Source of the DNA: a virus
Virus record (IMG/VR): IMGVR_UViG_3300049491_000357
Span: 1-64,000 of that record
Direction: 5' to 3' (one strand)
DNA length: 64,000 bases
Shown here: one piece after another, positions 2,244 to 59,500 of the stretch
Layout: each line of letters opens with the position of its first letter
Numbering within the stretch: the first letter of the stretch is position 1
Position numbers and translations under genes: made by a program
The notes under the pieces: generated by a model
The model's database searches: none
The model's input: the letters and a program-made list of their open reading frames with translations, nothing else
Told to the model about the DNA's origin: nothing

Positions 2244-2519
2244 TCAAGTCCCAGGGATGAAGGAGGCGGCGACGATTACGTTTGTGAGCGGTGATACCCC
2301 ACACCGGGCCCCGGTGTACTGAGTTGCCAGATAATCTGGTGCACCAGTCACTTGCCATGTTCTGTACACAACCCCACCGCAATCGGGGTCACGACCAACC
2401 ATGATGAAAACTGTGGCTTGGGCAACACCTTCAGCACCCGGCGTCAAAAGGAAAGAGCGCTGTGTTGATACGGCAGGGGTATACGACCAGGCTCTCAAAG
2501 TGCCATTCGTGTTTGCCAT
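2244..2519 (-). CDS. Hypothetical protein (91 aa)
   Basis: ATG 2519 (MANTNGTL...) shares its A with the in-frame TTA ending the upstream gene (TTATG). Ends TGA. Confidence 0.65.
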   Translation of the reverse strand: MANTNGTLRAWSYTPAVSTQRSFLLTPGAEGVAQATVFIMVGRDPDCGGVVYRTWQVTGAPDYLATQYTGARCGVSPLTNVIVAASFIPGT

Positions 2520-3670
2520 AACGATGGAACCACTCCGCTCCATTTAATGGCGAAAATCTCACCGGTTGAACAGACCATGTAATCTCTGGTGTTTGTTCCT
2601 GTAGTACTAATGGTATCTTTCTTGTTCCGACTCACCATGATGAGTTTGAAGAACGTGCTTGTCCCCTTCCAGCCTCTGGGTGCAGTTGCGCTGGCTATAC
2701 GAGCCCAGTTCATTCCGATGGCAACGTCATACCCAGAATAGGCGTCAACGCCAAAGAACGCTTGTGTTCCCGCCCCACCTTGACAGTACGGGCCGACAAC
2801 ACCAATAGTCACAAATCCTTCACCACCGAGTCCCTTTTTGTGGTATCCCTTGGTGAAGGATGTCGTGGTCGTGACTCCCATGTTACCCGATTCGTAGATA
2901 CCGAAACCAGCCCCGAAAACATAAGGGTCTACGTCGGCTGAATCGAATGTACCAGAGACCATGGGGTCCATGAAGACCCCGTCTCCGGCAGTCCCAGTCC
3001 CGTTTGCAATGAGGGCAAACCCATAGGGGGTCGCGTTATCACACGCCACTAGAGCGGTCATACTTGTAGCATCAACAAACAGCAGCGTCCCGGCTGCCGT
3101 TCCGTCAAGGATAACCTGACTACCGGTCGCTGTCGGAACTGCCGTGGTCGAACCGCCAGTGGAGAACGCAGTCGAGTACGAGTAACGGATATTCCAGTAT
3201 TGGTCGCCCGTTGTTCCGCGCTGAAAGACCAACTCACGATTTACGCTGTTGGCGGTAGGCATTTGGAGTCTGATCCAGGCACCAGAAGTTCCTGCAATAC
3301 CAGTCGTCGTCCACCAGTCATATGAAACGACACCACCGGTCGCAAGGGTGCCGGTTCCGCCTGAGCAGCCGGTAAACGTCGTAGCAGTCTTTCCTGTGTA
3401 GGTAATGGTCTGTGCTGCGTTGGCGTTATTGTAGATCGTGATTGTCCCAGATGTAGGGAAATTCGTGGTGCTGACCACATTGATTGTGGCCTGAGGAAGG
3501 GCTGCACCGTTTGAACCGGCAGCAATGGTCGTTGATTGTGTGAACGAACCACCTGACCCACTGCTAGAACCCATGAGCTTCCACCCGTTGGCCACCAGGG
3601 TGTCCTTCAGGAGCTTCATGATCGTGCCTGGGTCGGCCGCCGAAATGTTTGAAGAGTATTGAATAGCCAC
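2519..3670 (-). CDS. Thr/Gly-rich probable virion/tail-associated protein; ends at putative TTA stop
   Basis: GTG start with GAGGT upstream. Beta-rich T/G/S composition like phage fibre or decoration proteins. In-frame TTA at 2519-2521 after ...KWSGVVPS. Confidence 0.6.
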
Positions 3671-3677
3671 GATTACC

Positions 3678-5078: not shown

Positions 5079-5080
5079 CC

Positions 5081-11079: not shown

Positions 11080-11712
11080 TAAGTAAAGAAGAGCCCAAGA
11101 AGCTACACGCAGTGGACGAGTCGGCAACGTGGTGACGTTGGTGAGACGTATGATGAACTGATTCCCCTGTCCAATCAAGGGGATATTGAGCATCCCCCCA
11201 TCCGTGGTAGGGTAGAAGTGGCCCCCGTTATCAAAGCTCACGTCACACGTGAAGTTCGACGGGCTACTCGCCTCCTCGATATACGTAGCCCCTACCCTAG
11301 AAAGTGAACTGTCGTTGTAGGCTAGGGAGAAGGTTTCAAAGGTTACCACGGCTTGACCGGGAGAGGCCAAAAGAGGAACTACCGTCGACTGGAACGTTGC
11401 CCCAGGGAAAATGTTGACAATGTTTCGGTCCCCAAAAGACCCGCTCACATTTGGAGCCCCTAGGTCCACGTCGATGAGATCAAGAAGATCATCAAAAACG
11501 ATGTTTGGGTATCCGGCATTGTAGGCCAAGAGCGCTTGGTGCTTCTTGGTAAGCAAATTGGACAAGTCGGCTGGATTTTGCACCGACAAATAGTCGGGGA
11601 CCCGGACAACGATGTTCCCGTTGGTTGTGGCATCAGGCCCCGACCGCACATCGAGAATCTTTGCTGTGGGGATCGGGTTACCAAACAGGTCAACCATGTA
11701 CAAGGTGCTCAT
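11080..11712 (-). CDS. Tail-associated protein; ends at putative TTA stop
   Basis: TGATG coupling at the start. C-terminus ...LRVASWALLY then in-frame TTA (11080-11082); standard-code TGA lies 4 codons later. Confidence 0.65.
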
Positions 11713-14700
11713 CAGCTCATCCTATGTCGGAGGTTGTCTCTCACGTAACCAGCTCCTGGTTGAGCCTTCCTACCATAGGGATGATGCCCAGAGGAAGTCA
11801 CATTTGCATACGAAGGCAAACTTACCTTCCCGGCTGGCGTCATGAGACGGTGATTGTACTGCGGCAAACGTGTTTGGGCGCCTACATTCGAGTAGGTGAC
11901 GTTCGTTGGGTCACCCCACGTTTGACCCGCAGCTTGCCAGATTGGCCGCCCCATATTGGGCCACGATTCCTCGATGTCCGTAGCACCTCCACCGATGACA
12001 ACGTTCTCGATATGCACGTTGTCTGCGTCTTCGATGATGAGGCCCGTCGCAGTCTGACCCACCGTCCAACAGACCACGTCTTCTCGTGCAACCGCAAAGA
12101 CCGAGTCACCCACGACGAACGATGGGATATCTGTGTCTGTGGCGTCAACGATGAGGGTGTTGTAGGTCGGCCCTGGCCCGGACAGGCTCAAGATGGTGAC
12201 CACAGCTTTAGGTACACCACCAGCACTCACGATCATGATCTTCATCCCCGGCTGCCATGCTTGCGAGGCAACCGAAAGCTGAAGGGTACGACCAATCCAA
12301 GAAGCGATAGTCGACGGACCGCTCAGGAACACGCCTTGTGCTGGGTAGACCCCTGGAGAGGAGGAGTTGCTGTCGTACCAGAGGATAGAGGCAGCAACGA
12401 GCCAACGGCTCAGGCGAGGGTTCCACCGAACCTTCATCTGAGACACGAAGGGGGCAACCGGTTGTGTACCCGTCCCATTGCTCTTGGCCCCATACCCTGT
12501 CGGGTATGACCCGTAACCTGGGCCAGGAATCTGTCCAACGGCATTTCCGAAAAGGAAATCTCCACTGGGAGGGTTTTACGTGTTTGGGTGCAAGACCGCT
12601 GAGCCTACCTCGCCAAAACGGCTGTTCAACAGCTTGGCTTGAAGTTGCGCCTTGGACGTACCCAACTGAAGCATGGGCATAACAACCAAGTAATGTGAGC
12701 CATTCCAGGCAACATCTCCACGCTGGAACGGTACCTCAACAGGAGGGTAGTTCAAAACCACTTCTGGGGTCGTGGCTCGGACACTTGGCTTGAACCCGTA
12801 AAGAGCTAGCTGAGAACCACCATTCGTAACTAGAACAGCGAACTCATCCTCTACCTCATTGTAGGTAACACCATGCAGGATACTGGTCTGTGGCGAAGAG
12901 CTGTTTGCCCACGTAGGGTTTTGAATGAGAGCCCCTCGCGTAGTAACCCCAGCTTTGGTGGATTCCAAAGACCCGGCATTGTCGTAATCCGACATACCAC
13001 CGCCACGGATTTCACCGTAGATGGCCTTACCCCCCAGCACATTGATGTCCCCAGAGTTAAAGAGACCCTGAACGATAAGCTGGTGCCGCCGTGGGTCGTA
13101 GTTGATGACGGGGTACACCCCATTCGAGTCGACGGAAGTCACCAGGGTGTTGGTGTCCATGACCCTGGTAACCACAAGCTGGTCACCAGGCTGAACGTTT
13201 GCCTGCTGGTAGCGGAGCACGACGTAATTGACACCAGCAGTTCCTGTTCCGAACGTGCTGCTGGACGCTGCGATATTGATGTCTGTCGCAGTCACAACAT
13301 CAATCATGTAGATGCCCTGATCAGCACCGCTGGTGACTACCAGGTAGTCTCCTGGGCGAACACCGCGAGTCAAGAAAGTTGCAGCACCATCCGTGAACAG
13401 GGATGAACCTACGTTTGTGACGCCAGTTGCTCCTGATGCCACGAACGGGCTGACTTGATTCCCGAAAAGCTGGATGACCGTGTAGGCAGCACTATAGAAA
13501 GGCGCAGCCCCTGTCGCCAAAGTCCCCGACTGACAGGCATACCCGAGTGAGTGCACCCCACCCCCAGAGCCCAACGTTGTGGTTGAGAAGGGCCCATTCG
13601 ACCCAGGGTAGGACGTCGGATACCCAGCTCCAGTTTGAAGCCCCTCACTCGACATCTGACGAGTAGGTTGCGGCCTTGCCCCACCGTCCTCAGGCATTGT
13701 CGTGAAAAAGACAGTACTGGACAAGGTAGGTGGGCTAGCGGTATCCGTCGGAACCACTACTTCGTAGAAAACCGTGAACCGGCTGCCATCCCAAAGGACC
13801 TTTGGGTTCTGGAAAGCCCCAGGTTCCGTCGACTGGTCAATCACGTAGGTGGTTCCACCTCCACCAAAACCAGGGAATGGGCCACTTCCAGGGAACTGCC
13901 CTGCCGATGCAGCAGCATCCATGTTGAAGAGAGTCACCCCGATGGTGGACCCTCGCATGCTTGGGGCCGTCGAGTCATACTGAGGAACCATACCGGCCGC
14001 CCAGACAACTGCATAGACTTTGCCCGAAAATGCAGCCTCACAGACAGAGACGGTGTTGTTTTCGTTTGGGGTCGGGGCTTGGCCGCCCTCTCCAGAGAAC
14101 CCGGTACCATCTGAGATGTGGACGGCCGAGAGCGGGAACTGAGCCATCAGCCCCCCAAAGGATGATGCAGCCTCGTACGGGTCAACCAACTCACCCGTCT
14201 GCATGTGAGTATCCTCACTGCCCGGCAAGTAGCTCATACACAGATAGTAACCTACAGCTGCATCCGACGACCCCACCAAGAGCGTGGTAGCATTGGCCTT
14301 CTCCACCCAGAAGATCACGAACCTTTGGCCGTCCCAGATGACCTTTGGCCCTACCCCTGGTGCCAAATAACGAGGAGGGTTATTGGCAATATTCTCGTAA
14401 GAGGGGTCAGTTGGCCACGACGATAGATCGCCACGAGCGAGCGTAGGCCCATCTACATAGACAGGGTTGTTACCCTTTGCATCTGTGTACACAGCCCCGA
14501 TGATGCTCGTTTCAGGGACCAACGTAGGGGCGTACGGAGCATAGATACGAGACGTTGGGAAAACGAAGACGTTTCTGAATCCGTCTGTATCGAAGGACAG
14601 AGTGGATGCAGTAGGGGCCAAGTGCCTTGTGTAGACATGTGCCTTACTGAGCATCTCAACACTGCTTGAAGGGGTAGCCTCAACAGCTAGGTTTCTCAAC

Positions 14701-21202: not shown

Positions 21203-21204
21203 TT

Positions 21205-23796
21205 TAACACGCCCTTGTTGAGAAGGCGCCCTTTGATATTGAAGACTGCCGCAGTGGTCGTATTGATGAGCAAGGGCTCAAAGGAGACCCCATTATTGGG
21301 GTCAAAGAATGCTTCACGAAGCAGCAACACAAGAACAAGTTGGCCTGCATGCCCAAAAGTCGAACTTGGGATCAGTTCCGCAATCATCGGAACGATATTT
21401 CGGTGTCTCTTGGCGTCGGAGAGCTGCTGAGCAAAAGCATTGGGGATATACCCCACAGGGACCGACTTGAAGTACGAACGTCCTTCAATGTCAGTGTCCC
21501 CGAGTCCTCGATCAAAGGTCACTTCCTCTGGGGCAGGAGTGTACCCTACGAAGGCCGGAAGACGCAAGAGGCCGTTGGTAGAACTGAAGTCCGTCACAGC
21601 CAAGTCGGCCGAAGCTGAGAGTTCATGGTCTCCGTTGAACGTACCTACCGACGAAGGGTAGATCCCACCCATCTGCACGTAGTTCACAGGGAACGGGTAG
21701 GCTTCGTTTTCAGAACCTGACCCTACCGCAAGGCAATAGACCGCATCCCCAACAAATCGAGGGATGACCGTCAAGGTCGTTCCTAGAGAACTAGACCGAA
21801 TGGTTTGAGGGGCTCGTGCCTCGTAGTAGATCGTCATCTGCTCATTGTTTTGAGGCAAAGGACGGATCGCCGTATACGTGACCTGTAGGGTATCCCCAGG
21901 CACCGTAAAGTCGAGAGGATTGGTAAAGGTGACGTATCTCCCCGAGGGGTCGAGAAGCGTGCCTCCGATGATGGGCACAGCATTTTTGAGCACGGCGACA
22001 ATCGTGTCGACTCGCTCAGGCAACATGAAAAAGTCGTAAGGCCCTGGAGCCTCCGAGTTCGACTCAAAAACAGCCGTTGTGATGTTGGTCGTCACATACT
22101 GAAGCTGAACTTCTCTGTGCGGAGCGTCGATGGTATTGCTTGGGGCCAGGGCAGAAAAGCTGACTGGTGCCGCCGCAGGTAGTTGGCCCGGGTTGTTGAC
22201 AAAGAAGGAGCCCGCAAACGTGTCTGTGGGGGTTCGGGTAAGACCTTCGCCTCGCGGATAAGCCACCACCAAAGTCAAGTACAGGGGTTCGGTCGAGAGA
22301 CCAAACCCTACAATGTTGCCAACGGTTACGGTCAGAGGAGCAAGGGGCACCGTCCCAAAGCCCGTCACGCTGGTCAGCAGCATCTGACGGGTTACCTGAC
22401 CCGGTGTACCAACCCACCACCCATCAACCAGGTCAACGAACTGTACTCCAGCAGAGTTGTAGGCAGCCCAGTTAAAGGGGGCAAAGGGGGAGATCTCCAG
22501 CGCTGTAGGCTGCACAGTCACCACTGACCCGGGTAGCCAACCACCACCTGGGGCATTGATTTTGACTACGACCGTCTCATACACACACCGGTCTGAGAAG
22601 AACCGCCGGGTTGCATCAAACTGCCCGATCAACGTCCCACCAGGGGTATCCCCCGTGATGATCCCGTCTCCGCCGTTTGCGTTCGAGATACCAATCTCAT
22701 CCGCTGCAAAGACCGAGTGCCCGTCGTAGCCCCCGCCTTGTAGGGCGTTCGTCCACTCAGTACGGATCTTGTTGTCGAAAAGGAAGTTGAGATTCTTGGT
22801 TAGAATCTCGCTAAAATCCCACCCGTTCGGGGTCACACCCGTTCGGAGGTCAGCGATATCCCGAGGCACAAAGATGTCGTAGAACAAGCTATCTGGTCGA
22901 TCACTCGGACCAGGGGAAGCTACGCCGCCGTTTTGATTGGTGTTGCGATCAAAGGCATTGGAGTTACGTCGAAACACGACCGCCAAAGGGATCGCGTACA
23001 TGTACCCATCTACCGTACCAAGAGCGTTCGTAGGGATACCATCCCCTGCCCGCCAAAGACCTGCGTCCCCGGCTGCATCCTGGCTAACATAGGGGAAGAT
23101 GGTTGCAACTCCATCCGGGGTTGCAGCGTTCGGAGGAACCGAGTTAGCCACCACCGTAGGGTCATTGATGACCAGAGGGAACGCGAAAGGATCGACTCCC
23201 TGGATGACTCGAAGTCGATATTGAATCTGTACTCGTTTGGTAGACTCCGATCCCAACGTCGCATCTTTGATGTCATCAGGGAAATTCAGGAGGGCATCAT
23301 CTGCGGGGGAGATCTTAACGTTACCGTCTCGCCAAATACGACCTGACGGGCTCTTACCGTCAAGAGAAGGAGCTGCCGTAAGCAGCCGTCGCCAAACCTC
23401 CAACACGACGAAGTCAGCTCGCTTAGCCCCGGGGCCAACAGGGGCAAGCCCCATATCGATCGTGTTCGTCCCGTCGTTTTTGCCTGTGTTTTGGACAGGG
23501 ATGATCCACCCATTCACATGGGACAGAAGCGTAGGTGAGGCGTAAAAATTCGCAGTGGGGGACGGAAGGAAGATGGCCTCCGACATGTCACTGGAGGCCA
23601 AAAAGTCCGCCGACAGCCACCCAGAGGGCATGGCCACACGAAGAGCTAGTTGTCCTGCACCCCCATCAACATCCTGCTGAAGGTTTAGCTCTGTGTCGAG
23701 AACTGGCTTTCCGGCCTGAAATACAGTCGTCTCCCACGCACGACCATCCGGGTTCAGGTAGCCGCTTACACCAGGTCCGAAGTTTTTGGATCCCAT
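21205..23796 (-). CDS. Tail/baseplate structural protein, paralog of 6682..11007; ends at putative TTA stop
   Basis: MGSKNFGPGVSGYLNP...VFQAGKPVLDTELNLQQD matches the N-terminus of 6682..11007. In-frame TTA at 21205-21207 after ...IKGRLLNKGV. Confidence 0.75.
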
Positions 23797-23870
23797 GTTT
23801 TACACCCTGGCTTCTGTAACAGAAGACCTTCGATGATGGTCGATGCATACGGTCTTCATACGACGCCGAC

Positions 23871-24515
23871 TAAGAAGGAAAGCCGCCAGACGATCGTGAG
23901 CGTCGAAGTTGCAGGCTTGTTGATGACAGGAAACGTCAAGTAGTTGACCAACGTCTCTTTGGTGGTGAGGTCTACGGTAGGGTTGTACGGACCGTTTGGA
24001 GGAGAAACGGGGTTCTTGATCGACAGGTTCGTAGAGACGTTACCCCCGATGATCCCCATCTCAACCAAAGGTCCAACCGCCTCGGCTTCCGTGAACGTTG
24101 TTTGGAAGTCGACGACATTGGTCGGGATGGCTACCGGAAGCCCACCCCCGTCGATGAACTGAGTATTCGAGAAGGTTTTTCGAGTGATCTCAGCGTACAG
24201 GGCTCGTTGGGTGTTCGTTGGAGCCGGAGGAGCCATGGGGTTCCACCCGGTATCTCCTGTACCCACAGCCAAGCAAAAACACCCGTGAGGGGGTTCCTGC
24301 GAGTCCTTCATCAGACGTGCGATCAGGATCGAAGCATCCTTGACGACAAGATTCCGCTTCTCCCACTCATGTTGAAGCTCACCTGTAGCCCCGTCATGCA
24401 TCTTGATGAAAACGTCTCCCCGAATGTAGAATCGGGCGTTTTCATCGTACTTTGGAGATAGGACTACCCCCAAGTTACCTTCAGTGGTTGGAGAAAAAGC
24501 CTCGACATTTTTCAT
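23871..24515 (-). CDS. Baseplate/tail-collar-type protein; ends at putative TTA stop
   Basis: ATG 24515 (MKNVEAF) with GAGGG upstream. Motifs NLVV...LAVGTGDT...L..EITRK...EMGIIGG...TFPVINKPATSTLTIVWRLSF are typical of this phage family, which ends on the xWxxxF strand; TTA follows immediately. Confidence 0.75.
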
Positions 24516-24545
24516 CTGTATTTCCCTCTGTGCATCTGAAGGGTC

Positions 24546-24554
24546 CGATAAGAG
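24546..24554 (-). promoter_or_regulatory. Candidate late-promoter motif, copy 3
   Basis: CTCTTATCG about 31 nt upstream of ATG 24515. Confidence 0.4.
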
Positions 24555-24564
24555 GAACCGCGGT

Positions 24565-25743: not shown

Positions 25744-25759
25744 AAGTCCATGTCCGATG

Positions 25760-31387: not shown

Positions 31388-31401
31388 CTAGCGGCCTCAG
31401 C

Positions 31402-31932
31402 TAACGTGATGGTCGAAGTGTACGTCACAGACAAGGTGTCGTTCGTGTTGAGCGTCCTTGTTGCAAACTGGACCTCATGAGCCATGACCCCGCCGACATT
31501 CGCATCGAAAACAGCGGACTTCTGTACGCCTTGTGGGGGGATACCGAGGTACGTGAACATGTAGGCGATCGTCGTCTGATTCGCAGGGACGATAGGCAGC
31601 GTCACCGTAGCCAGGGCTCGGGTCAACCCGCTACCCGCCAGCTCTGCGGGCAAACTCGTGTCTGTCGCCAGAGGAGCCGCAGCATCGTTCGACAGACCGA
31701 TGTAGTTGAACCCACCTCCAAGTGAACCACGGGTCGGAACCGAAGCTGCCGTGGCATAAATGTAGGCGTGGATTCGAACGAGTCCCGCATTGGTGACGAG
31801 GTTGTCAACCACCTGATCTTCATCCACCTGACGGTACACGTACAGCCCACGCTTCTCGTCGAAGTCGTATGCCTGCTCATGGTGGATTCGAACACGGGCC
31901 CTTGGACGAAGCGTTTCAGTGACGATATGCAT
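31402..31932 (-). CDS. Tail-collar/baseplate-type small protein; ends at putative TTA stop
   Basis: Strong SD TAAGGAGGAGG before ATG 31932 (MHIVTETL). Motif NLVTNAG...YIGLS...TDTSLPAEL...TLNTNDTLSVTYTSTIT, then TTA at 31402-31404. Confidence 0.7.
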
Positions 31933-32800: not shown

Positions 32801-32804
32801 CAGA

Positions 32805-32981: not shown

Positions 32982-32984
32982 GGG

Positions 32985-36434: not shown

Positions 36435-36437
36435 ACA

Positions 36438-38314: not shown

Positions 38315-38355
38315 GGCTGAACTCCTCGGTAATAGTAAGCGTACAAGTGGGATCG

Positions 38356-40695: not shown

Positions 40696-40700
40696 ATCAG

Positions 40701-40946
40701 TAAGGACCCATACGTGAGCTTGTCCAGTTTCCGACGGAGAAGGTCAAGCTCTGCATTCGAGACCTCGATCGTGCCCCGAACCACTTCCTTCAGTTTCGTG
40801 TGGATGCCAAATTCGTTCTTGAACTGCCATTGAGCCCGTGGGGGGTCGGCATTTTCTTCCGAGCCCGATCCCTCCTCCGTTACGGGAGGGATCTTTTCGG
40901 TGTCTGGAGACTCGTCCTCCAATGTGGGATCTTCTGGGCCACTCAT
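40701..40946 (-). CDS. Small acidic protein (81 aa); ends at putative TTA stop
   Basis: ATG 40946 two nt after the upstream TGA; ...KLDKLTYGS then TTA at 40701-40703, 5 nt before ATG 40695. Confidence 0.6.
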
Positions 40947-40948
40947 CG

Positions 40949-43900
40949 TCACACCGTTGTCTGCACTGAAAGGATCTTCAAAAGGTCGTTGTACAGTTTG
41001 GTTGTAGCCGCAATGCGGTTAGCCACAGCGCGCTGGATGACATACAAACTGCCTGTTTCAAGATTCGTTCTCGCGTCAATCCAAGCATACCTCTTGTCGT
41101 AGAGCTTGTCTCTAGTTTTCACGATGGCTTCAACTTTGACGACAGGAGAGGCTGTGGGGCTGGTTACCACTGCGGTTCGGGCCGCCACCGCTGCCGCCCG
41201 TACGGGCAAGGTAGTCGAAGACAAGGGGTTTGCGTAAATGAAGGGGTCGATAACCCCAGGAGGGACGAAGACATTGGTTGTAGCAGTGATGATCCCCAAA
41301 AAGCTCTGTGTGTCAGACGAAAAAGACTGAGCATCCGCTCGGATTTGGAAGAGGTCTTGAAGGGCCAACAGGCCCACCCCAAGAGTCTGCACGATGCGGT
41401 AGGTCACAGGACCAACGACAGGGAACGGGGTCGTTATGGTGAGCTGGGTGGGAGAAACGACAGAGTCCACCTGATAGAAGCCTGCATCAGCCCCCGTCTC
41501 AACGTAGACGAAGTGAGAAGCATTGACCCCAGCCGCGATGAAGTCCTGAGAGAGATCCGTTAGCGTCGATCCGGCCACATTACCGGGATTGAGGGTCGGA
41601 GTAAGAAGATCCGTTAGCACCCCGTACGTTGTTGGAGGTAGAGGGTGCCCCTCAAAGAATCGGTCAATCGCGATGCTGACCGCATCTACAACAGACGGAG
41701 TGATGTCGTGGTCATTCACGGTGAGCACGTTAACCTCGGTCAACGTAGCCCCAGAAACCGCACTCCAGTTGGAGTAGGTGCACAGATGGTTCGACACACG
41801 ATAATTCGTAGCCACCAAAAATGGCACGGGGTGGTCAAGCTGGAGTTGGGTGGGGGACAACCGAGCTACTACCTGACGGCGCACTCCGGCATTTGCTCCC
41901 GTCGTCAAAACCACCGTATGTCCAACCTGAATGGCAACGCTCAACCCAGGGTCATCCAAGGTCGTGGCCGACGGAAACGTTGCCGTACCTGTAGCGAGGT
42001 TGGTGGTTGCTGTGATGACTGCATTTCCTACCGAGCTAGGATTCGGGAAAGCTGAGTCCACCGTGACGGTAGTGGGACCTACAGCCGTGATTCTACGGAA
42101 ACCAGACCCTGCGTTTGGTCCGGTGATGAACTCCACCAGATCGAACACTTGAGGCAAGGGGGCCGGGAAGACACCCGTATAGGTCAAGACAGTGCCCGTC
42201 ACCCCCACCGTAACACCCACAAGCGTAGTTGGAGTGGTAGTGTCCGACAGTACCGACGCGATTGCAGTGGCCTCTAGGGTGAGAGCAGAGACCTCTTGGG
42301 TAGGAGCGGGGCTCAGGATTGGGATGCTTTGATCATTGCAGTCAGATCCAGTCCCCCCATACAAGGCCGGGAATTTGTACGGGGTCTTCGCAACCTGAAG
42401 GATCCCCACAGAGTCCATCTCTAGAAACTCGCCTGCGTTGGGAGTTTGGATCTGCAAAGGGGCAGGAACCAACGGGGTAGACCCGTCAAATGGCGGGTAT
42501 GGCTTCACATAGATGAGCTGCCCCTCATTTGAGTCCACCGCGATATCAAACCCCTGTCGATAGAGCTTCCAGTACACCGTGTCGGGGGTTAGTCCCGTAT
42601 TGCAGAGGTAAACCGTTGCCCCACGAGGGATGGGGATAGGAAGAGGCCCTACCTGAATCCGTTCCGGGGAAGCTAGTACAGCAGTCACCGTCAGAGGGGT
42701 AGCATCGGAAATCAAGACGACCCCGTCACGATTCGTGATGACCACCTTCATCCCGACAGCAAAGGAAGGCCGGAAGAACGTTGAGGTTCCTTGAGCGTTA
42801 TCGACAAATAGCGTGGTGTCGCCCGTTGCAGCGTCAGACGTGATGTGTGCTCTGGGGAGTCGTCGGTAGATCGTATCGGAAAGAGAAGTCAGAGACTTCT
42901 GGGCCAAGTCCTCGATCCTGTCTCCCGTGTTAGCTCCCGTGTTGGCCCCACCCGTAGTCACCCCAAAAAGATGGGCTTTGGCTGTTGGGTACAGACGAGA
43001 AAACCCGGAGGGCTGGTACAACGCGAGGTACGTGCCCACATACGTTAGAGCCAGGGGCGGAAAGGTAAACGTGACTGGATAATCCGAGATTTTGAAGACG
43101 TCATCAATCTCGTTCGTCACCGTTGCGTAGGAGGTCCTAACCGGATTGGTGACGCTCCCATCAAAACGAAAACGACCATTCACATCCCCAATGATCCGAC
43201 CGTCTTCGTCTTCGAGAACATCCTCAAGTCGATTCGTGTTGTCGTTGAAGAACTTGAGATATGACCGGCTCACATAGTCGACGTTAGCCATGTGTCCCTC
43301 AGTAAAGAACAGAGACTCTCGTCCTTGTTGGTACAACGTAGGGGTAGAGGCATTTGAGGTTGTAGGTCCACCAGAAGGGGAACTTCCTTGTGCACTCTGT
43401 TGCAACTCTTGCAGAACCTCCCCAGAGAAGTTCGTCAGAGTCTCAACCCGATAGTAGAAAGAGTCCTCTGAGACCAAGGAATAGTCAGCTTTGAGTATCT
43501 GTCCTTCCAGCCCGTTTGAACTAGAAGGTGTGATCAAAGCCACATAGCTTGCCCGCAAACGAACACCAGCTTGTACGATGCGGTACCCGGTGTACAGAAT
43601 GCTCAAAGACTCGTTTACCCGAAGCGTCTGAGCATAGGTCAGCGTTCCGCTGGCATCGAGTTTGTACTCTGACGGGCTGGACAGGATTTCCCCTGGCTGC
43701 CCTTCAGTCCGCCTGAAGACCGTCACCACCTCAGACCCCAAGGGGACGTTCTTCGTGAAGGCTTGGGTCACCCCATCCTCAATGATGGGCCGCACAGACC
43801 GCTTCAAAATCATCGAGTTTGGCGTGTACTGCCGCAGTGCATTCTGAGTGAAAACGACCGTGGTTACGCCATCTTTGAACGTTGCCCCAGACACGTAGTA

Positions 43901-46900: not shown

Positions 46901-47146
46901 GCGGCGGACCACCGCAGTCGTGGTCCCCTCATTTTTAGTCCACCCAAAGGTGGCCTGAACAAGAAGGCCCTCCGTTTGAACCACTACGAGGTAGTCCGTT
47001 CGAGAGACGCCTTCTACCCCTGGAGTGTAGTAGGCGTCAAAAGCCCCCTGGTCCTCAATGAAATCGTTAGGGGTGAAAGTAAACGGAGAGTTCGACGCCC
47101 CAACACGAGGGGGCTCCAAACAGTAACCCTTGTTGGAAAGTCCCAC
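40949..47146 (-). CDS. Very large baseplate/tail structural protein (2065 aa)
   Basis: Long beta-rich ORF between spike and wedge genes; repeated TLTD...F...GV.PGD.....G...G.Y modules; ends TGA. Confidence 0.7.
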   Translation of the reverse strand: MGLSNKGYCLEPPRVGASNSPFTFTPNDFIEDQGAFDAYYTPGVEGVSRTDYLVVVQTEGLLVQATFGWTKNEGTTTAVVRRFDYNGSDGLFKPLPGSGPTLVGELQSDANTARLRVLPPIGVLVDDPFRLAVGAGSGTTFNVLLVPNDGAFGAPVPGSVELSQATGNLNWAAADLVTYLGQQVRFQQQSYFDYTDSSGRIGLTQDTILILNPLPGAGQFPLIRLGFGFHLTPIQVATEGGFSPDPVAGTVEWALNTGRIKLNSGDVLANAGKPVYYDGTLFGWKIPLPSAPGGTVLVPLPVLPVPAPGGDLIFRLPSGYQFPSVRRVTVFDVGTAGEVQLRTDGAVQFSAADQAQYGATTVTVTRGDLPIERGVAMRFFRSPVNLDGTDPSVKDVSLLYTTQGAVFASPIIQVPYVLLPATPLQDPGYPISIYVEQGTGSFTGVLPDLGVPAPPVGLGYILDYEAKQLLFAQRKVNQLVPFQEPGGTIQLQDVPVRPENLLLELETGPGTGIFNPLGLGSTAFFDPATAIVTLTDQFGTLVVDSTATAFVGSTLTDTSVNFITSGVTPGALLVIATGSAAGVYGVTTVTATTLTTDVPSPIPVGATPYEVRSGSEVIADRFFQETVPVDPNTKIEKVRSLGPIVNSVVVFTGVNPGVFDTPTTMTDTSTDFVVDGVLPGDTVRLTSGPDSNSYRTVTIVEASTLTVDRAFTSYPSANYQIERRLRVPVNYIATTRIRLGLIFASLVQVATNSVFTAPGLLPAGTVEVSLETGDLNFSTVDITSGVTVFWARALKLQIDYRVSKDLGFVELTERLLTNDEMFITYRPVTSTGVLPPVEERVRFLIRKELTLPYPRLAVTDTVQFNPAGRTVADNPAPAVFRGGRPQDSSQITIHSATSTIQFLANVGFMTNALPSGNVVEVDERILVDYYVYEAVGGEKTFTVLQPPIFAAQVSISSGAPGFVLVGDQTATFPPNYLLRIEKEQVYLIGSSVYDPGSDQTTITLAFGATFADDFVNPRLYLSSGLVRTSPSPSFPSYFVIEMSSVQTVPRGMPRVLLAGDQTLNYPTGTIILFTDNATTYDFYYVSGATFKDGVTTVVFTQNALRQYTPNSMILKRSVRPIIEDGVTQAFTKNVPLGSEVVTVFRRTEGQPGEILSSPSEYKLDASGTLTYAQTLRVNESLSILYTGYRIVQAGVRLRASYVALITPSSSNGLEGQILKADYSLVSEDSFYYRVETLTNFSGEVLQELQQSAQGSSPSGGPTTSNASTPTLYQQGRESLFFTEGHMANVDYVSRSYLKFFNDNTNRLEDVLEDEDGRIIGDVNGRFRFDGSVTNPVRTSYATVTNEIDDVFKISDYPVTFTFPPLALTYVGTYLALYQPSGFSRLYPTAKAHLFGVTTGGANTGANTGDRIEDLAQKSLTSLSDTIYRRLPRAHITSDAATGDTTLFVDNAQGTSTFFRPSFAVGMKVVITNRDGVVLISDATPLTVTAVLASPERIQVGPLPIPIPRGATVYLCNTGLTPDTVYWKLYRQGFDIAVDSNEGQLIYVKPYPPFDGSTPLVPAPLQIQTPNAGEFLEMDSVGILQVAKTPYKFPALYGGTGSDCNDQSIPILSPAPTQEVSALTLEATAIASVLSDTTTPTTLVGVTVGVTGTVLTYTGVFPAPLPQVFDLVEFITGPNAGSGFRRITAVGPTTVTVDSAFPNPSSVGNAVITATTNLATGTATFPSATTLDDPGLSVAIQVGHTVVLTTGANAGVRRQVVARLSPTQLQLDHPVPFLVATNYRVSNHLCTYSNWSAVSGATLTEVNVLTVNDHDITPSVVDAVSIAIDRFFEGHPLPPTTYGVLTDLLTPTLNPGNVAGSTLTDLSQDFIAAGVNASHFVYVETGADAGFYQVDSVVSPTQLTITTPFPVVGPVTYRIVQTLGVGLLALQDLFQIRADAQSFSSDTQSFLGIITATTNVFVPPGVIDPFIYANPLSSTTLPVRAAAVAARTAVVTSPTASPVVKVEAIVKTRDKLYDKRYAWIDARTNLETGSLYVIQRAVANRIAATTKLYNDLLKILSVQTTV

Positions 47147-47149
47147 AGC

Positions 47150-47392
47150 TCACGCCCCAAAAGGACCAGAAGAAGCCTGAAGATCGATCCCATTCGCATC
47201 ACACGTAAGGCGAACCAAGGCATCAAAGGTTTCCTCGGATACTTGCACCTCGTGTGGAGATCCCCCCAAGTCGAAGACAGCAAATCGACGATGTTCACCT
47301 GGTACCAGGTCCCCATCAATGAGCTTTATGTCCCGAGACTCTCTCAGGTCAGTTACTGGAACAAGCAAGGAGGTTACTTTGATGTCGTTCAT
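47150..47392 (-). CDS. Small hypothetical protein (80 aa)
   Basis: ATGA overlap upstream, 3-nt gap downstream. Confidence 0.6.
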   Translation of the reverse strand: MNDIKVTSLLVPVTDLRESRDIKLIDGDLVPGEHRRFAVFDLGGSPHEVQVSEETFDALVRLTCDANGIDLQASSGPFGA

Positions 47393-47958
47393 ACGATCTT
47401 TCCGGTGCCGGAACCAGCACCAGGGGAAGGGCCAGAAGGTCCTACGATTGGTATCGGAGAAGTAAAAGCTGCAAAAGTCTTATCGAAAGCCAGCCCCAAA
47501 GCCAAGGCCATTTGAGCTGAGGTAGGACCGACCATACCCAACGTCGCAAAAGCCTGCTGAAAACTCGTGTATGCGGGAGGAGATGTAACACGTACTACAC
47601 CGGATCCGGACCCTACTCCGACAACAGTGGCCAACAAAATGCCTTGTACGAGGGCTGCCGATAGACCGTTAGCCAACCCGAGAGCCGTAAGGGGACTGAA
47701 AGGACCGTGTATACCAAACGACAAGAAGCTGGTCTGAAGATTGGCCAAAAGAAGGGGCTGAGGCACCAGAAGAGGCAAGGTAGCTACTCCGGTCCCGTTC
47801 GTTCCAGCTCCTGTGACGCTGACGGTTGCTTTAGTAGACCAAATCGATACCCCCAGAGCTACCCCCTGGGCAAACTTTGGCATGACCACCCCTATGTGCC
47901 CAGTCGCAACCAAGTTTGTGCCCAAAATAATGGCTACCGCAGGTGGAGCGAGCGGCAT
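47389..47958 (-). CDS. Gly/Ala-rich spike-associated protein
   Basis: TGATG-coupled directly downstream of the spike gene; ends GAGSGTGKIV. Confidence 0.55.
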   Translation of the reverse strand: MPLAPPAVAIILGTNLVATGHIGVVMPKFAQGVALGVSIWSTKATVSVTGAGTNGTGVATLPLLVPQPLLLANLQTSFLSFGIHGPFSPLTALGLANGLSAALVQGILLATVVGVGSGSGVVRVTSPPAYTSFQQAFATLGMVGPTSAQMALALGLAFDKTFAAFTSPIPIVGPSGPSPGAGSGTGKIV

Positions 47959-50153
47959 CAGTTAGACATGACCGTGAGAGAGCCAAGTAGTGGCGTACCT
48001 GTGATGGGGTCCAACGTTGGAGTGCCAGGAGGAAGGGAGGGTATTCCTCGACAGACGCCCAGAACAGCCGAGGGTCCCCCAAGCTGAATGAGAGGAGCCA
48101 CCATCGAAACGAGAGCCCCTGAGGTCAAGGTGATGGCCAAGCCAGCCGTCAACGTGAGTGCAGCTCCGGCCGTTATTGATACCGCTCCAGCACCCGCCGT
48201 GATTGCTACAGCACCTGCTGCAGCGGTCATCGTCAAAGCCCCACCCCCAACGTTGACGAGGTACCCACCCGCTCCGATGTTCGTTACCTGTCCACCCACT
48301 CCGATGTTCGTTACCTGTCCACCCGCAGCGATGGTTTCGATCAAACCACCAGCTAGAATGGTAGACACTTTACCCCCAGCGATGATCGTCTCCAGTACAA
48401 CCAGAGCATGATTGTACTGGGTCTTACCCGCAACAAGGATGTCCATGCTGCTGAGCATCGCTGAGTAACCTTGCAGAGCGTTTACGTTGATTCGATCTGC
48501 CTGGAGAGCATACCCACCATTGACCGTCGTGCTCTTAGCCCCATTGATCGTTTCAATGAAGTCCCCAGAGGTGGCCAGCCCATAGTTGCCCTGAATGTCT
48601 TCGCTTTTAGCGAAGCCGTCTTCGTTAGCCACTCCAGATTGGTAGTTGACCGCAACACCAGAGTGGAACGTAATATCGATGGCGTTACCGGTGTCCTTGT
48701 TGTGTCCAACTTCGGCTTTGATACCGCCTTGCAGAAATGCCTGGATACTCGTGTTGTTTTTGTCTGAACCCCCGATGAACATCTTGAGGGCCCCCAACAA
48801 GTTCATCTCCACAGAGATACCAGAGTCGTCAGGATACCTTTCGACTGTAGGCTTGGGAACGTTGATGTATACTTTGCCTTGTTTTTCAACAGACACCGCG
48901 AAAGGATTGTCGTCCGTAGCTCCGTAAGGGCACCAAATGCGAAAGAGGTATGCTGCTGCTGACGTGAGAGTATTGGTGTCCCCTTTTGCTGCCCGCTCTA
49001 CCTCGGACAGCAAGAATTTCCCCGGGCCATCCGTCGAAAAACTCTGCCACAGTTCTGGCTGAAGAACTTTGCCGTATTGCTTAAGCCCTTGAGTTCCAGT
49101 CGTGTCGTTACCTACGACAGTCCCGTAGACCCGCTCGATGAACGGGCGTCGTTTCACGATCGCAAAACCATCAACCTCAGACAGCACCTCTTGCACGAGA
49201 TCCGTGTCGTGGGCCATCTCCATACGGTCTTCTGTAAAGGCGTTCCCAGGACCTGCTTCCCCATCCTCGATCCCCGTAGCGTAAACAGTTGAGGGGTAGA
49301 AGACCCTCTTACCATTGGAGTATGTTGTTGGGGGGTAAGTGGCGGTATCATTGAAAAAGTCGAGCACGACCCCAGACGAGTTTGCGTACTTCGTTGGGGA
49401 ATCAGGGATGCCAGGCCCAAGAGCTTTAAGCTCATCCGAACCAAAGTAACGATCTGCTTCTCCCTTGAGCTGACGACCCGTTTTGAAGATGTCCTGAGGG
49501 AGAAAGTTCTCAATACGACGAGCCGGACCCGAAGTGTACTTGATGCCCGAGGTAGAGTCGAAGCGATGGATAGCTTGCGTGACAAGCGTTCGCTCAGCAT
49601 CTCGAAGTTCAATGAGGTCACCTGCCCGGTTACTCATCCGAACATCTTTAGCTAGGACAAACTCAGCACCATCAGAGGACATGCCCCCCACATTACCGGA
49701 CCGGAGCTTTAGACGCTTGTGTCGAACCGTTCGGCCGATGAACTGGTCGTAGATGCTCTTTTCAGCGGGATCTGTAGGGACATCTGAAGGGTTCGTAGGC
49801 GAGAAAGGGTCATAACGAAGCCCGCTTTTGTTGCCCACGGGGATGAACCCAAGGATCACGGGCTCCCACACCTGTTTGTGCTTCATCCGATAGGCCAAGA
49901 CAACAAGGGAGTTGACCTCGGGAACCCCTCCCCAAAAAGACCTTGGGCCACACATCGCCTGAGTGAGATCAACCTCCGGGACTGTTTGTCCACCGCGAGT
50001 GATGACCTTGACATCACCCTTCATGTTGATCTCGTCGATCCGCGTAAGAATTCCTACATGGAGCCCTTGGGGGAAACCATTGTCTCCGAATCCCTTTCCA
50101 GGCGTATGCCCAGTGGGGTACTTTTTTCGGAAGTCTCCTACACGGATAGTCAT
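47958..50153 (-). CDS. Baseplate central spike (gp5/gpV/VgrG-like)
   Basis: N-terminal OB-fold-like region (GGVPEVNSLVVLAY...PVILGFIP) and C-terminal 9-residue Gly-rich beta-helix repeats (GGQVTNIGV, GAVAITAGA); follows the hub gene. Confidence 0.7.
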   Translation of the reverse strand: MTIRVGDFRKKYPTGHTPGKGFGDNGFPQGLHVGILTRIDEINMKGDVKVITRGGQTVPEVDLTQAMCGPRSFWGGVPEVNSLVVLAYRMKHKQVWEPVILGFIPVGNKSGLRYDPFSPTNPSDVPTDPAEKSIYDQFIGRTVRHKRLKLRSGNVGGMSSDGAEFVLAKDVRMSNRAGDLIELRDAERTLVTQAIHRFDSTSGIKYTSGPARRIENFLPQDIFKTGRQLKGEADRYFGSDELKALGPGIPDSPTKYANSSGVVLDFFNDTATYPPTTYSNGKRVFYPSTVYATGIEDGEAGPGNAFTEDRMEMAHDTDLVQEVLSEVDGFAIVKRRPFIERVYGTVVGNDTTGTQGLKQYGKVLQPELWQSFSTDGPGKFLLSEVERAAKGDTNTLTSAAAYLFRIWCPYGATDDNPFAVSVEKQGKVYINVPKPTVERYPDDSGISVEMNLLGALKMFIGGSDKNNTSIQAFLQGGIKAEVGHNKDTGNAIDITFHSGVAVNYQSGVANEDGFAKSEDIQGNYGLATSGDFIETINGAKSTTVNGGYALQADRINVNALQGYSAMLSSMDILVAGKTQYNHALVVLETIIAGGKVSTILAGGLIETIAAGGQVTNIGVGGQVTNIGAGGYLVNVGGGALTMTAAAGAVAITAGAGAVSITAGAALTLTAGLAITLTSGALVSMVAPLIQLGGPSAVLGVCRGIPSLPPGTPTLDPITGTPLLGSLTVMSN
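48272..48324. repeat. Exact 26-nt direct repeat with 27-nt period inside the spike beta-helix
   Basis: CTCCGATGTTCGTTACCTGTCCACCC at 48272-48297 and 48299-48324. Confidence 0.9.
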
Positions 50154-55775: not shown

Positions 55776-56562
55776 TTCTCGTTCCTCCCGTTGAAGCGTT
55801 GGCTACGCCGATAGTTGGACCCGCCGCCCCAGATCCAGTAGCGGACACAGGTACAGCTCCGTTGGGGTTTGTCCTGAGTGCGTTTTGCGTTTGAAACTGT
55901 GGGACTTGGATACCAGTAGGCACAAAGCTCCGACGGACCCCCTGCACATTCGCCTGATCCCTGGGGACTACCTGTCCAGGGATCTTCACCAACGTCTGTT
56001 TGACCTTGAAGCTCCAAGACAACTTGAAAGCGAACGGGCTCTCTTCCGTCTCCTCGTAGTCGAACGAACGGAAGTACCCAAGGAACGTTCCCCGATCGTA
56101 CATCAGCATCACATTGCCCTGGAGGACGATATTCCCGAACGGGTCGTATACGCTACCGTTATTGTGGAACACGTCATAGAGATCACGGAACCGATCCCAG
56201 GCAATCGTTCGTTGGCGCAACACAGAGGTCACCCCTGTGTAGATGTTCATAAACGCCCCTGTGGACCCATCCGCCGAGATCTCAGATAGGTCGTCGGGCC
56301 AATGCTGTTCGACGAAGCCACCACGCGTCTGAAATCGCTCAATCTTCTTGGTGTGAGTCTCTGAAAGAGACGAGGGGTTGACATGCATCACAAGAGCATG
56401 CGGAAGAAGAGCTTTGGTGCCGTCGAATGGACTGGTGATCTGGAACGCCATCGGGATGGGGCCCCGACGAGCCTCAGCCCCATGCTGGTACCTTGGAGGA
56501 CCAGGAGCATCCAACCGAGGACTGTTGGGGTTAGGCGAACGGATAATAGGAGTTCCAGCCAT
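55768..56562 (-). CDS. Tail tube initiator-like protein (gp48/gp54-like)
   Basis: MHVNPSSLSE...QTRGGFVEQHW...FLGYFRSFDYEETEESPFAFKLSWSF; directly downstream of the tape measure gene. Confidence 0.65.
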   Translation of the reverse strand: MAGTPIIRSPNPNSPRLDAPGPPRYQHGAEARRGPIPMAFQITSPFDGTKALLPHALVMHVNPSSLSETHTKKIERFQTRGGFVEQHWPDDLSEISADGSTGAFMNIYTGVTSVLRQRTIAWDRFRDLYDVFHNNGSVYDPFGNIVLQGNVMLMYDRGTFLGYFRSFDYEETEESPFAFKLSWSFKVKQTLVKIPGQVVPRDQANVQGVRRSFVPTGIQVPQFQTQNALRTNPNGAVPVSATGSGAAGPTIGVANASTGGTRSG

Positions 56563-56567
56563 GGGTC

Positions 56568-59500
56568 TAATCTGTTCTTCATGGCAGCCATGTGCTCAAC
56601 CACGACATTTTGAGCTGTGGCTTCGACGAACTGCTTAAGATCCCCCTTCAAGGACAACTCCACTCGCACCTGACCACCTCCGCCCCCTCCTCCTCCGGCG
56701 GGAACGATACGTTCCCCCTTGCCAATGGACGTAAGACCCTCCCCTGGGGCAGGACTGATCTTAGCCAAACCTCCAGCCACAGACGATACCATACCTCCAG
56801 CTGCGTTGGCTTTAATGCCATACTCATCCTCATGTTTGCCCGCATACTCCCCAGCAAACTTCATAGCAGACTTGGGATCACTGACCCCACCTTCAGCGAA
56901 GTCATCCTTCCACCCCTTCACCTTGTCTGAGAAGGCGAGCATGGCGAATTCAAAGAGAGCCACTCGAAGAGAGTTGAGGGTTGATTCCTCAATCATCTTC
57001 GCCATTTGATTCTCCATGAAGGACTTGTTCAGTTTGATGCCCTTGTTCTTGAGGACGTTCTCAATCTCACCCAAAGTCCCCAGGGTTGCCTCCTGTGCTT
57101 CCACCCCAGTTTCCATGACTCCAGTCTGAGTTTCAGGAGCAGCGGTGCCTCCAAATGTGGCTTTGATGGCATCTTCGACATGAGTGTCGTGGGTGTATGC
57201 TGTAGAGTTTGTGGTTAGCGCCTTCCCAGCCTCTTCTGTGTTGGGGAGTGCCTTTGCAACACCATCTCCAACAGCGGCTGACTGTTCCTCTTTGGTGAGA
57301 GCAGAGGGGCCGCCCACTTTTGCTGTATCCCCCAATAGCTTAACAAGGTCTGTGGGCATCATTCCACCAAGAGCGGACTCACGCGCTTTGGCTCGATCAC
57401 CCCCAAAGTCAGAATCAATGTCTCCCTCCCCATAACGATCTTCAAGAGTCTTCTGAACCAATGCTTGTTTCTGATCTAGGGCGTCAGCTTCTTTCCTCAA
57501 CGCATCGCTTTTGGCTTTAGCTCTAGCTGCTTCAGGCCCAGTAGCCCCATATGCCTCTCGATCAACATCCTCAGCCTCAGCTCGTTTGGATGCCCCAGCT
57601 TCCCCCTTCGCCATCTTAGATAGCTTCTCAACCTCCTTGAAAGCATCCGTTTGCTTCAGCGCTTTATTTTGATCCCGCCAATCCTTGTTATCTTTAACGG
57701 CAGCAAGGATTGCAGGATCTTTTGTCTTTTGAGCCTCCATTTTTGTCTTAGAGGAAGAACTGGCCCCAGGCAATCCGGTAAGAGTTTCCCAGATACCAAT
57801 GATCGCTTCGTAGAAGGTGTGCATCATCCAGTCGATGAACACCTGAAGTTGCTCCATGATACTCTGGACCCGAGTGCCCATTCGCTTGTTAGCTTCCTCC
57901 TGGGCATCTTTCCCGTCGGCTGTATCTTTTGTGGCTTGGTCCATGGTGTCGTAGATCTTGGTCCAAGAAGCATCCTTCGCTTCTTGTGCCGACATCTTCC
58001 CCCGTTTGACCAACTCCTCTCGTTGCTCCGCAATCTGCTCTGCCATATTTTGGTATAGCTGACGCGTTTCATCATCTAGTCCAGCCAAGGAGTCACCGGC
58101 TATACTACCCAAATGTCCCTCATCGCTACCAAAACGTGTAGTTTCGGCATACTTGTGTTCAGCCGCAGCCACCACGCTAACTTTGGAGAGTGCTCTGGCA
58201 TTTCCTACCAAACCCCCCTTAGCCATTCTCTTCTCGGCGTTCAGGCTGGAGACGGCCTCCTTCAGGGTGCCTACCTTTGACTTATCCCCTGACTCAGCGA
58301 CCTTTTTGATCATATCTCGAACAGCGTCTTTACCCGCCGGGCCAGCTTCAAGAGCCTTCTTGACATCCTGGACAGTGCCCCCACCAGCATCTGCAATAGC
58401 CTTCGCGATGGAGCTGTTTTTTGATGCAATGTCCTCCGCAACAAGTTTGGCAGTCTTGGCAGGCCCTGCGAGTAGGGAGGACTTGACCTTGTCTTGGAAG
58501 CTAGCTCCCTTGTATGCATTCATAGCGGACTGCATGAATTTCTGAGCATTTCGTGGGCTCATCACCTTACCAAGCTTACCCAAAAGCTTGACCGCATCTT
58601 CAAGACGAGTGTTGTATAGACTAAGGTCAGCGGACACTCCTCGGATCATGGCGTAAAACTTATTGCTGGCGATCCCAGAATCTTCAGCACTTCTCGTAAT
58701 CATGCGAAACGAATCAACCGTCTGACCGAGACTTTGCCCCAGCTCAGTCATCATCTCAGCCTGGAAGCCCGTAACCTCCTGCAAAGAGATACCCATCGAG
58801 CGGGAGTATGCCACCGCTGCTTGAGTCACTGAGCCAAAATCCTTAGAAAACGCAGCGGACTTCTGGTTTAGTTGCCCAAACTGCTGCTCCAACGCCGTAA
58901 GCTGCACACCTTCCGCCTGAAGACTAGAAAGCACTTCTTTATGAGTGTCCGCAGAGATCCCCCAATCCAAGTTATTGGACGCATTGTAAGCTGACTCACG
59001 GATGTTTCTCAGTGAGTCATCCATCTTACTCAAGCCTTCCTCAACATTACCCATCGATCCCGAAAACCACTGAGCTGTTCCAGCAGAAGCCAAGATGTCC
59101 TTGTTGAACTCTTTGACCATGGCCTCGGCGTCAACGAACATCTTCACGAGCCCGAAGATCGAACCCCCCAAAGTGCCCAGAAGTGGCCCGAGTTTGGATA
59201 CGGTTGAAATGACCGGCCCCATCTTGCCTGCGATTGCCCCAAGCCCCTTAAGGGCTGCCCCCATCGCTGCTTCAGGTCCCCCACCCTTTGCTTGAAGTGC
59301 AGCACCCTTGGCGGACAACGACCCACCAACCTTGCTCAGCTTCCCACCAAGGTGTCCCCCGGCTGCCTTGAGGCCCCTGCCAGCAAGCTTAGCAAAGCTC
59401 TTCCCCGCCCCTTCAACATCCTTGTGCAACAAGGCTGAAAGCGGTTCAGCCAGCTCCTTACCAGCCTCAAGAGCGGCCTTCGTGAGTTCATTGCCACTGA

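Follow-up and report, generated by a model that had tools for sequence, protein, structure and literature searches.

TTA, normally a leucine codon, coincides with gene ends in a megaphage lineage and is probably read there as a stop signal

Introduction

Can UUA, a leucine codon in the standard code, end translation in a phage? The question is raised by a 64,000-nucleotide stretch of viral DNA (positions 1-64,000 of the 86,838-base record IMGVR_UViG_3300049491_000357, called G000 below; "the window" means this whole stretch). An original prediction, made from the letters of the window alone, had pointed to seven genes that carry an in-frame TTA exactly where their proteins should end. The window has a G+C content of 54% and all its long open reading frames (ORFs) are on the minus strand. 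All seven coordinates hold: the plus strand shows TAA at each of them, so that the coding sequence, being on the minus strand, has an in-frame TTA within a long ORF. Comparison with relatives indicates that coding stops at TTA and that TTA is never used for an amino acid, a reading which every sequence test put forward with the prediction supports. We consider it very probable that UUA ends translation in this phage lineage as a fourth stop signal beside UGA, UAA and UAG.

Results

TTA is missing from gene bodies and closes genes

With TTA treated as a stop in gene calling, contig G000 yields 63 genes with 28,135 codons and the window 38 genes with 20,557 codons. Neither set contains a single TTA in its gene bodies, where position-specific base frequencies predict about 188 in the contig. 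The codons that never occur in gene bodies of the contig are TAA, TAG, TGA and TTA, which leaves TTA as the sole missing sense codon: the next rarest, ATA, is found 47 times, and CTA (189), GTA (326), TTG (543) and TCA (241) are in ordinary use. The G+C content at third codon positions (GC3) of these genes is just 0.60, so base composition fails to explain the absence. The depletion is far beyond chance. At gene ends TTA is frequent: it closes 12 of the 63 genes, seven of them in the window, next to 39 TGA, 8 TAA and 4 TAG stops in the contig and 29 TGA and 2 TAA stops in the window. Counted by position in the gene, in-frame TTA is terminal only, with 12 terminal and no internal cases, as had been anticipated.

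The window has 34 long ORFs when read with the standard code, and these comprise 20,818 codons and 12 in-frame TTA. Of the 12, seven are the sites in question; the tail behind 56568 contains one more, and the remaining four come before the likely start codon. The claim that TTA is common out of frame is borne out: the other two frames of these ORFs hold 186 and 103 copies, and the contig as a whole has 415 TTA trinucleotides on the coding strand and 398 TAA. In the stop-to-stop ORFs of the contig, in-frame TTA is confined to the last 1-60 codons and to 5′ stretches that lie ahead of the likely start or run into the previous gene. NCBI table 23, which has TTA as a stop, breaks none of the long window ORFs, among them the five largest genes (2065, 1875, 2119, 1441 and 1149 amino acids (aa)), which had been noted to lack internal TTA. 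ORFs of up to 2,142 aa are also intact in the window under table 11.

The next standard stop lies 8, 4, 23, 5, 10, 11 and 60 codons beyond the seven TTA (in the order of sites 2519 to 56568). From the coordinates, the tails that would result if TTA were leucine overlap the next gene by 16-175 nucleotides (nt), as originally stated, and the five close spacings between TTA and the following start are also as described (Table 1). Over all 12 TTA-ended genes of the contig, the distance from TTA to the next start is -1, -1, 2, 5, 5, 10, 12, 14, 30, 62, 72 and 74 nt.

Table 1 Window genes that end in TTA, and the tRNA gene with anticodon UAA of a relative
Feature	Record	Coordinates	Strand	Terminal TTA	Remarks
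383-aa gene	window	2519..3670	-	2521-2519	TTATG; last A shared with the next ATG
210-aa gene	window	11080..11712	-	11082-11080	next start 72 nt on
863-aa gene	window	21205..23796	-	21207-21205	2 nt, then ATG
214-aa gene	window	23871..24515	-	23873-23871	next start 74 nt on
~176-aa gene	window	31402..31932	-	31404-31402	14 nt, then GTG; start set by homology at the Met matching the G001 start (ORF listing: 32136)
83-aa gene	window	40701..40952	-	40703-40701	5 nt, then ATG
1139-aa gene	window	56568..59987	-	56570-56568	5 nt, then ATG
tRNA(UAA)	G001	248035-248110 (L017:8035-8110)	+		37 kb from the tRNA array, other strand

Homologous proteins end at the TTA column

The ends of homologous proteins carry the argument. 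The chief comparison is with IMGVR_UViG_3300036715_003906 (G001), a 251-kb IMG/VR relative with 68% G+C. Pooled over the seven window sites, 22 of 22 alignable homologue ends lie exactly on the TTA column, with TGA, TAG or TAA in its place, and the tails past TTA are conserved in no homologue; this is the outcome that the original prediction had expected of such an alignment.

At site 2519, all six database homologues (382-391 aa, 63-86% identity) end in VP[S/A] at the TTA column and contain nothing that corresponds to the 8-codon tail. At site 21205, seven of seven homologues end at the column, one residue past the same aligned Gly: G001 (57% identity) with TGA, LR745208.1 with TAA, and the metagenome contigs L149-L153 (68-73%) with TGA or TAA. 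The 214-aa protein ends in IVWRLSF followed by TTA here and in IVWRLSF followed by TGA in G001, while L149-L152 stop at offset 0 with TAG or TGA (4/4), which brings site 23871 to five of five. The remaining sites pair with G001 in the same column: SWALLY + TTA with SWAVVY + TGA at 11080, VTYTSTIT + TTA with VTFTLTLG + TAG at 31402, KLTYGS + TTA with KLQRGG + TGA at 40701, and AAMKNR + TTA with ALARLR + TGA at 56568, where the standard code would make the gene 60 codons longer and have it overlap the next one by 175 nt.

One database protein, P0001 (window 2495-3670), is entered as 391 aa and includes the 8-residue tail past the TTA of site 2519; the true gene has 383 aa.

Two TTA-ended genes of the contig outside the window have many more homologues. 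The 1,411-aa protein of site 69655 ends in TFNLRAR plus I, L or V. In 60 loci the codon that follows is TAG (22), TGA (16), TAA (12) or TTA (2); seven further loci have one extra residue and then a stop, and one runs off its contig. Counted by high-scoring segment pair (HSP), a standard stop stands at the column in 50 of 59, one codon later in 7 of 59, and TTA in 2 of 59. For the 450-aa protein of site 78815, a standard stop occupies the column in 36 of 40 HSPs and TTA in two, and the last two end 19-21 codons later. For the contig's ordinary stops, taken as a control, homologues stop at the column in 124 of 243 HSPs (TGA) and 72 of 152 (TAA). Judged by these fractions of column coincidence, TTA marks gene ends no less sharply than the canonical stops. 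Also outside the window, genes 86386 and 85813 of the contig share one frame and have only a TTA between them.

The contig codons covered by tblastn HSPs number 24,295 and include eight TTA, two of them terminal. The other six were considered as coding and rejected: they lie at 5′ alignment edges upstream of the true start, the subjects carry stops there, and the conserved N-termini (e.g. MPRYVFECQ, MKSG) begin after them.

TTA gene ends recur in a clade and interchange with standard stops

The end of the 1,411-aa gene is TTA in G000, in L020 (84% identical, 65% G+C) and in G001, and the end of the 450-aa gene is TTA in G000, in L092 (82% identical) and in G001. Genomes that keep TTA at the same gene end can be as distant as 72% protein identity, and differ in G+C content (54% vs 68%). 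In a FastTree tree of 44 copies of the 1,411-aa protein, rooted at the midpoint, G000, L020, L021 and G001 cluster together, and L067 and L022 are the nearest to them. The habit of ending genes in TTA is common to a clade.

G001 behaves like G000. Its 23,029 codons aligned to the contig contain two TTA, both terminal, and its own ORFs hold at least eight further TTA at 1-39 codons from the ORF end. GC3 in G001 falls from 0.90 before TTA (n = 600 codons) to 0.66 after it (n = 119). Internal TTA opposite leucine, which the original prediction had named as evidence against itself, was confined to standard-code relatives at a greater distance, opposite Leu in the contig in 59 of 91 cases in L030, 35 of 53 in L029 and 22 of 43 in L078.

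Exchange between TTA and standard stops goes both ways between relatives. Two genes that end in TGA in the window, at 24565 and 32985, have TTA at offset 0 in the alignment with G001. In the counterpart of 24565, G001 reads TTTITLVA, then TTA GCC CTC TTA, AGGAGA and, in the same frame, the ATG that starts the next gene. There is no standard stop for 234 codons at that junction, and reading TTA as leucine would fuse two proteins that are separate in G000.

The TTA sites are present in independent contigs

Logan contigs of run X1 (freshwater sediment, the probable source sample) are identical to the window over 21150-39363. Contigs from another, freshwater study leave several bins of the window uncovered but are identical over 31122-31497 (X2, covering 31402) and 40469-40743 (X3, covering 40701), so that the bases at two of the sites are confirmed, and the relatives with TTA-ended genes were assembled independently from other samples. 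The sites are not an assembly artefact, since a second study's contigs carry identical bases and since TAA trinucleotides and TAA stops persist in the contig. That the change to TTA keeps to the reading frame indicates selection at the level of translation.

In run X4 (activated sludge, about 91% alike), the spacer 40696-40700 between the TTA at 40701 and the ATG misses two single bases. The loss shifts the relative frame of the two genes, as expected with an untranslated spacer. Among the X4 differences listed there is none at 21185-21238, and the TTA at 21205 is apparently kept; we do not count this as evidence.

A canonical stop in one gene behaves differently from the rest. The 2,119-aa gene ends in a TAA at 12576-12578 (minus strand), behind which the frame stays open for 288 more codons to a TGA at 11712 (span 11712-18935). 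The region is a single ORF in L152 and L153 (2,426 codons) and in G001 (2,515 codons). Possible readings of this TAA are a nonsense mutation, a gene split in two, or a site of read-through. Elsewhere in the contig TAA is a true stop, with 63 of 63 HSPs agreeing at 74500.

Release factors, tRNAs and the host

The original prediction had proposed looking for phage-encoded variants of RF1 or RF2. No gene with the RF-1 domain (PF00472, found in class-I release factors or ArfB-type proteins) was found in G000 or G001, nor in five large relatives, four of them complete, where only a 15-bit sub-threshold match in G004 was seen.

No transfer RNA (tRNA) genes were found in the window or the whole of contig G000. 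G001 encodes 33 tRNAs and a transfer-messenger RNA (tmRNA), with 32 of the tRNA genes in an array at 201-212 kb. The leucine anticodons of this main array are CAA, GAG and CAG; UAA is absent from it. The one tRNA with anticodon UAA (Table 1) is atypical: a 76-nt class I molecule with G73 and not A as discriminator, two mismatches in the anticodon stem, and an encoded CCA. Four of five standard-code relatives also have a tRNA(UAA), three of the long-arm leucine type and one a 76-nt form; this last, in G003, is 73% identical to that of G001 and has A as discriminator. The G001 tRNA(UAA) could be a relic in decay or could serve for conditional read-through.

The tmRNA of G001 is of the one-piece kind (200303-200654, minus strand) and adjoins the tRNA array; its tag, ANDNVALVALAA, ends in TGA and not in TTA. 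A search of genome contigs for hosts by the pattern of its tag-coding part returned 36 loci, mostly permuted alphaproteobacterial tmRNAs, and found no host. The two one-piece tmRNAs among them, L112 and L121, are just 62% and 56% identical to the G001 tmRNA. The metagenome-assembled genomes (MAGs) that carry them, chosen by likeness of the tmRNA tag and not shown to be hosts, have an RF2 with the usual Ser-Pro-Phe tripeptide. Two further actinobacterial MAGs, of which the completeness is not stated, gave no RF2 match.

Genomic setting

The conserved 1,411-aa protein is encoded just beyond the window and has 73 IMG/VR relatives, whose contigs reach 512 kb. Of the five large relatives searched, four have terminal repeats and are rated 100% complete, while G000 itself is about 18% complete (CheckV-type estimate) and G001 about 53%. 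One window protein matches LR745208.1 (a 485-kb uncultured phage), the tail-fibre protein of a 309-kb Tunturiibacter phage, and gp211 of Bacillus phage G. On account of these large relatives, the complete genomes with terminal repeats and the protein matches, we take the window to be a piece of the virion-gene region of a megaphage.

Seven proteins in the window exceed 1,100 aa, the longest having 2,119 and 2,065 aa; Pfam or PHROG matches are nearly lacking across this virion-type region. Pfam searches gave a single match, to the PPC domain, among three giant proteins, and two sub-threshold matches only among the seven TTA-ended proteins plus the 1,411-aa protein. PHROGs gave a single weak baseplate-hub match among 10 proteins. 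Labels such as sheath or tape measure are for this reason not adopted.

Discussion

How might UUA come to act as a stop? In the account that we favour, UUA would be read by the machinery of the infected cell and not by a phage factor; the reader is probably the host's because no release factor is found in the phage DNA at hand. Most likely this would be a class-I release factor of RF2 type, with recognition of the second base widened, in a host cell where no tRNA decodes UUA efficiently. The code of the phage would follow that of the host, in-frame TTA would be purged from phage genes, and TAA, TGA and TTA could then drift into one another at gene ends. TGA is read by RF2 only, and for that reason the dominance of TGA among the stops fits an RF2-centred termination system, although it is only suggestive. 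Whether the host bacterium itself reads UUA as a fourth stop through an RF2 of widened specificity and has no tRNA-Leu(UAA), with the phage clade adapted to it, is a more specific proposal, to which we give an even chance.

Several observations weigh against reading UUA as a stop. TTA is rare or absent also in several standard-code relatives of 55-65% G+C, and relatives above about 60% G+C often have none. Since high-GC relatives with the standard code are also short of TTA, depletion alone is weak evidence and not diagnostic; the argument is carried by the placement of TTA at gene ends. Three of the 12 TTA-ended genes (86386, 85813 and 83919) have no informative homologue. No altered release factor and no missing tRNA were seen in the phage DNA examined; with G000 and G001 complete to the extent given above, a phage-borne release factor could also sit in unsampled DNA. 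The tRNA(UAA) of G001 scores 47.3 bits as an Rfam tRNA and would read UUA if it works. Lastly, a plus-strand ORF of G001 (47106..48026) has a TTA 22 codons before its TAG and a GC3 of 0.95 after that TTA. It is the sole candidate for an internal sense TTA in the clade, though it could just as well be spurious, an ORF of the non-coding strand.

Other explanations have to be set against the same data. UUA might be an unassigned, hungry codon with no release factor: in a host that lacks a UUA reader the ribosome would stall, and the peptide would come off by rescue or drop-off. The idea of unassigned codons in high-GC bacteria is not new, and such a codon accounts equally well for the lack of internal TTA and for its terminal placement; the failure to find a phage release factor and the tmRNA of G001 also agree with it. 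We nevertheless think it unlikely. Stalling at 12 of 63 genes, about one in five and large conserved virion-region genes among them, would be costly, and tmRNA rescue tags its products for degradation. The TTATG overlaps and the 2-5 nt spacers would place the next start beneath the stalled ribosome. TTA is moreover kept at the same gene end across the protein and G+C distances given above, and swaps freely with TGA, TAG and TAA among relatives, as a neutral stop would. Backup stops are not in excess, the next standard stop lying a median of 10 codons after TTA and 14 after ordinary stops. The alternative that the original prediction itself had offered, a hungry, bldA-like codon with conditional C-terminal extension, is disfavoured by the same lack of enriched backup stops, by junctions that have no backup stop at all, and by the interchange of TTA with standard stops. 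A dual meaning, in which UUA is mainly a stop but is conditionally read through late in infection (for example by the odd phage tRNA(UAA)) to give extended or fused proteins, would make sense of that tRNA's place away from the main array, of its occurrence in four of five standard-code relatives, and of two junctions where the next gene follows in the same frame with no standard stop between. Against it stand the distance to the next standard stop, which is no shorter after TTA than after ordinary stops, the absence of the tails from all homologues, the loss of the coding GC3 signature in the G001 tails, and the weak anticodon stem of a tRNA that may be a relic; we regard it as quite improbable.

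Recoding at a slow UUA has also to be considered, either as a +1 shift onto an overlapping TAG or TAA (TTAG, TTAA) or as a bypass or frameshift into the next gene. UUA-triggered bypassing has been proposed for a Streptomyces phage terminase (PMC10732093). Here seven of the 12 terminal TTA are followed by G or A and so overlap an out-of-frame TAG or TAA, and eight of the 12 downstream genes are in the same relative frame class. However, no stop overlaps at the other five sites (three TTAC and two TTAT); G follows TTA in 6/12 cases and ordinary stops in 16/51, which is no clear difference, and the frame classes are not clearly different either (8/12 vs 23/50). The homologues stop at the TTA column and are separate genes, so no fused product would be expected, and recoding is in our view highly improbable. 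Least credible of all is that nothing special has happened, TTA being merely a very rare leucine codon with real or harmless tails, placed by chance or by an assembly or processing artefact that turned TAA into TTA. It is true that many relatives whose G+C content is similar or higher use TTA rarely, and that one change from TAA to TTA lengthens a protein just to the next stop. Such an explanation would have to produce 12 terminal and no internal TTA in 28,135 codons, 22 coincidences with homologue stops in 22, the same habit in relatives assembled independently from other samples, and identical bases in another study's contigs; and with 398 TAA trinucleotides and 8 TAA stops remaining, there has been no blanket conversion.

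Some phages recode TAG or TGA to an amino acid; their genes are mis-called under table 11, and an interplay of tRNAs and release factors is expected in them. The change proposed here has the opposite direction. Recoding from stop to sense fragments genes, whereas the genes of this phage acquire junk tails and are fused, with long ORFs intact under table 11, and its conserved genes do not carry many in-frame standard stops, the TAA at 12576-12578 being the one exception. Codetta, by design, is blind to changes from sense to stop.

In the literature searched (full text), no UUA stop was found for a phage or a bacterium, and sense-to-stop reassignment is confined to mitochondria and, since 2025, plastids. 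The 2025 plastid paper (PMC12574857) terms its own sense-to-stop case the first outside mitochondria. In labyrinthulean (Thraustochytrium) mitochondria UUA is a stop (table 23), tied to a substituted conserved Ser in mtRF2a; in peDinoflagellate plastids UUA and UCA are stops, a modified pRF2 has been identified, the UUA stop being likewise linked to replacement of a conserved Ser in an RF2-type factor, and RNA editing removes in-frame cases; in the mitochondria of Marsupiomonadales and Pseudoscourfieldia UUA and UUG are stops, with a modified mtRF1a.

The labyrinthulean case is the nearest in kind: there, as in the phage, the leucine codon UUA has become a stop, is absent inside genes and is present at ends defined by homologues. 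Both sequence signs of a reassignment like that of table 23 are found in the phage, namely no internal codon and the codon at homologous stop positions. The setting differs, as those mitochondria have a small AT-rich organelle genome and their own imported release factor, while the phage clade has 54-68% G+C, a bacterial host, no release factor found in its available DNA, and a dominance of TGA. In the plastids UCA is also a stop, whereas TCA is an ordinary sense codon in the phage (241 in gene bodies). The mitochondria of Marsupiomonadales and Pseudoscourfieldia resemble the phage in a leucine-to-stop change that includes UUA, but both UUR codons are stops there and TTG is a sense codon in the phage (543). 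Control of the bldA type in Streptomyces, together with the bypassing proposed in a phage terminase (PMC10732093), shares with our case a scarce UUA, a regulatory or recoding role and a high-GC setting of host and phage. There, UUA stands inside coding sequence, is decoded or bypassed, and the protein continues; here there is no internal UUA and homologues end at it. No subset of genes in the contig has an internal TTA read as leucine, all 12 being terminal. Nor is there a sign of one product made from two ORFs, the homologues being separate and the downstream frame classes undistinctive.

For this clade the practical consequence is that gene callers using table 11 add junk C-terminal tails or fuse neighbouring genes, as P0001 exemplifies. 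The difference in code could serve as a barrier to host range or as a marker of it, and the clade would offer a natural test case of a codon that is emptied and then captured by a release factor. If UUA is indeed a stop here, the standard set of three stop codons would not be fixed in the bacterial and phage world either; and if the same holds for the host, it would be the first sense-to-stop code change in a free-living cell.

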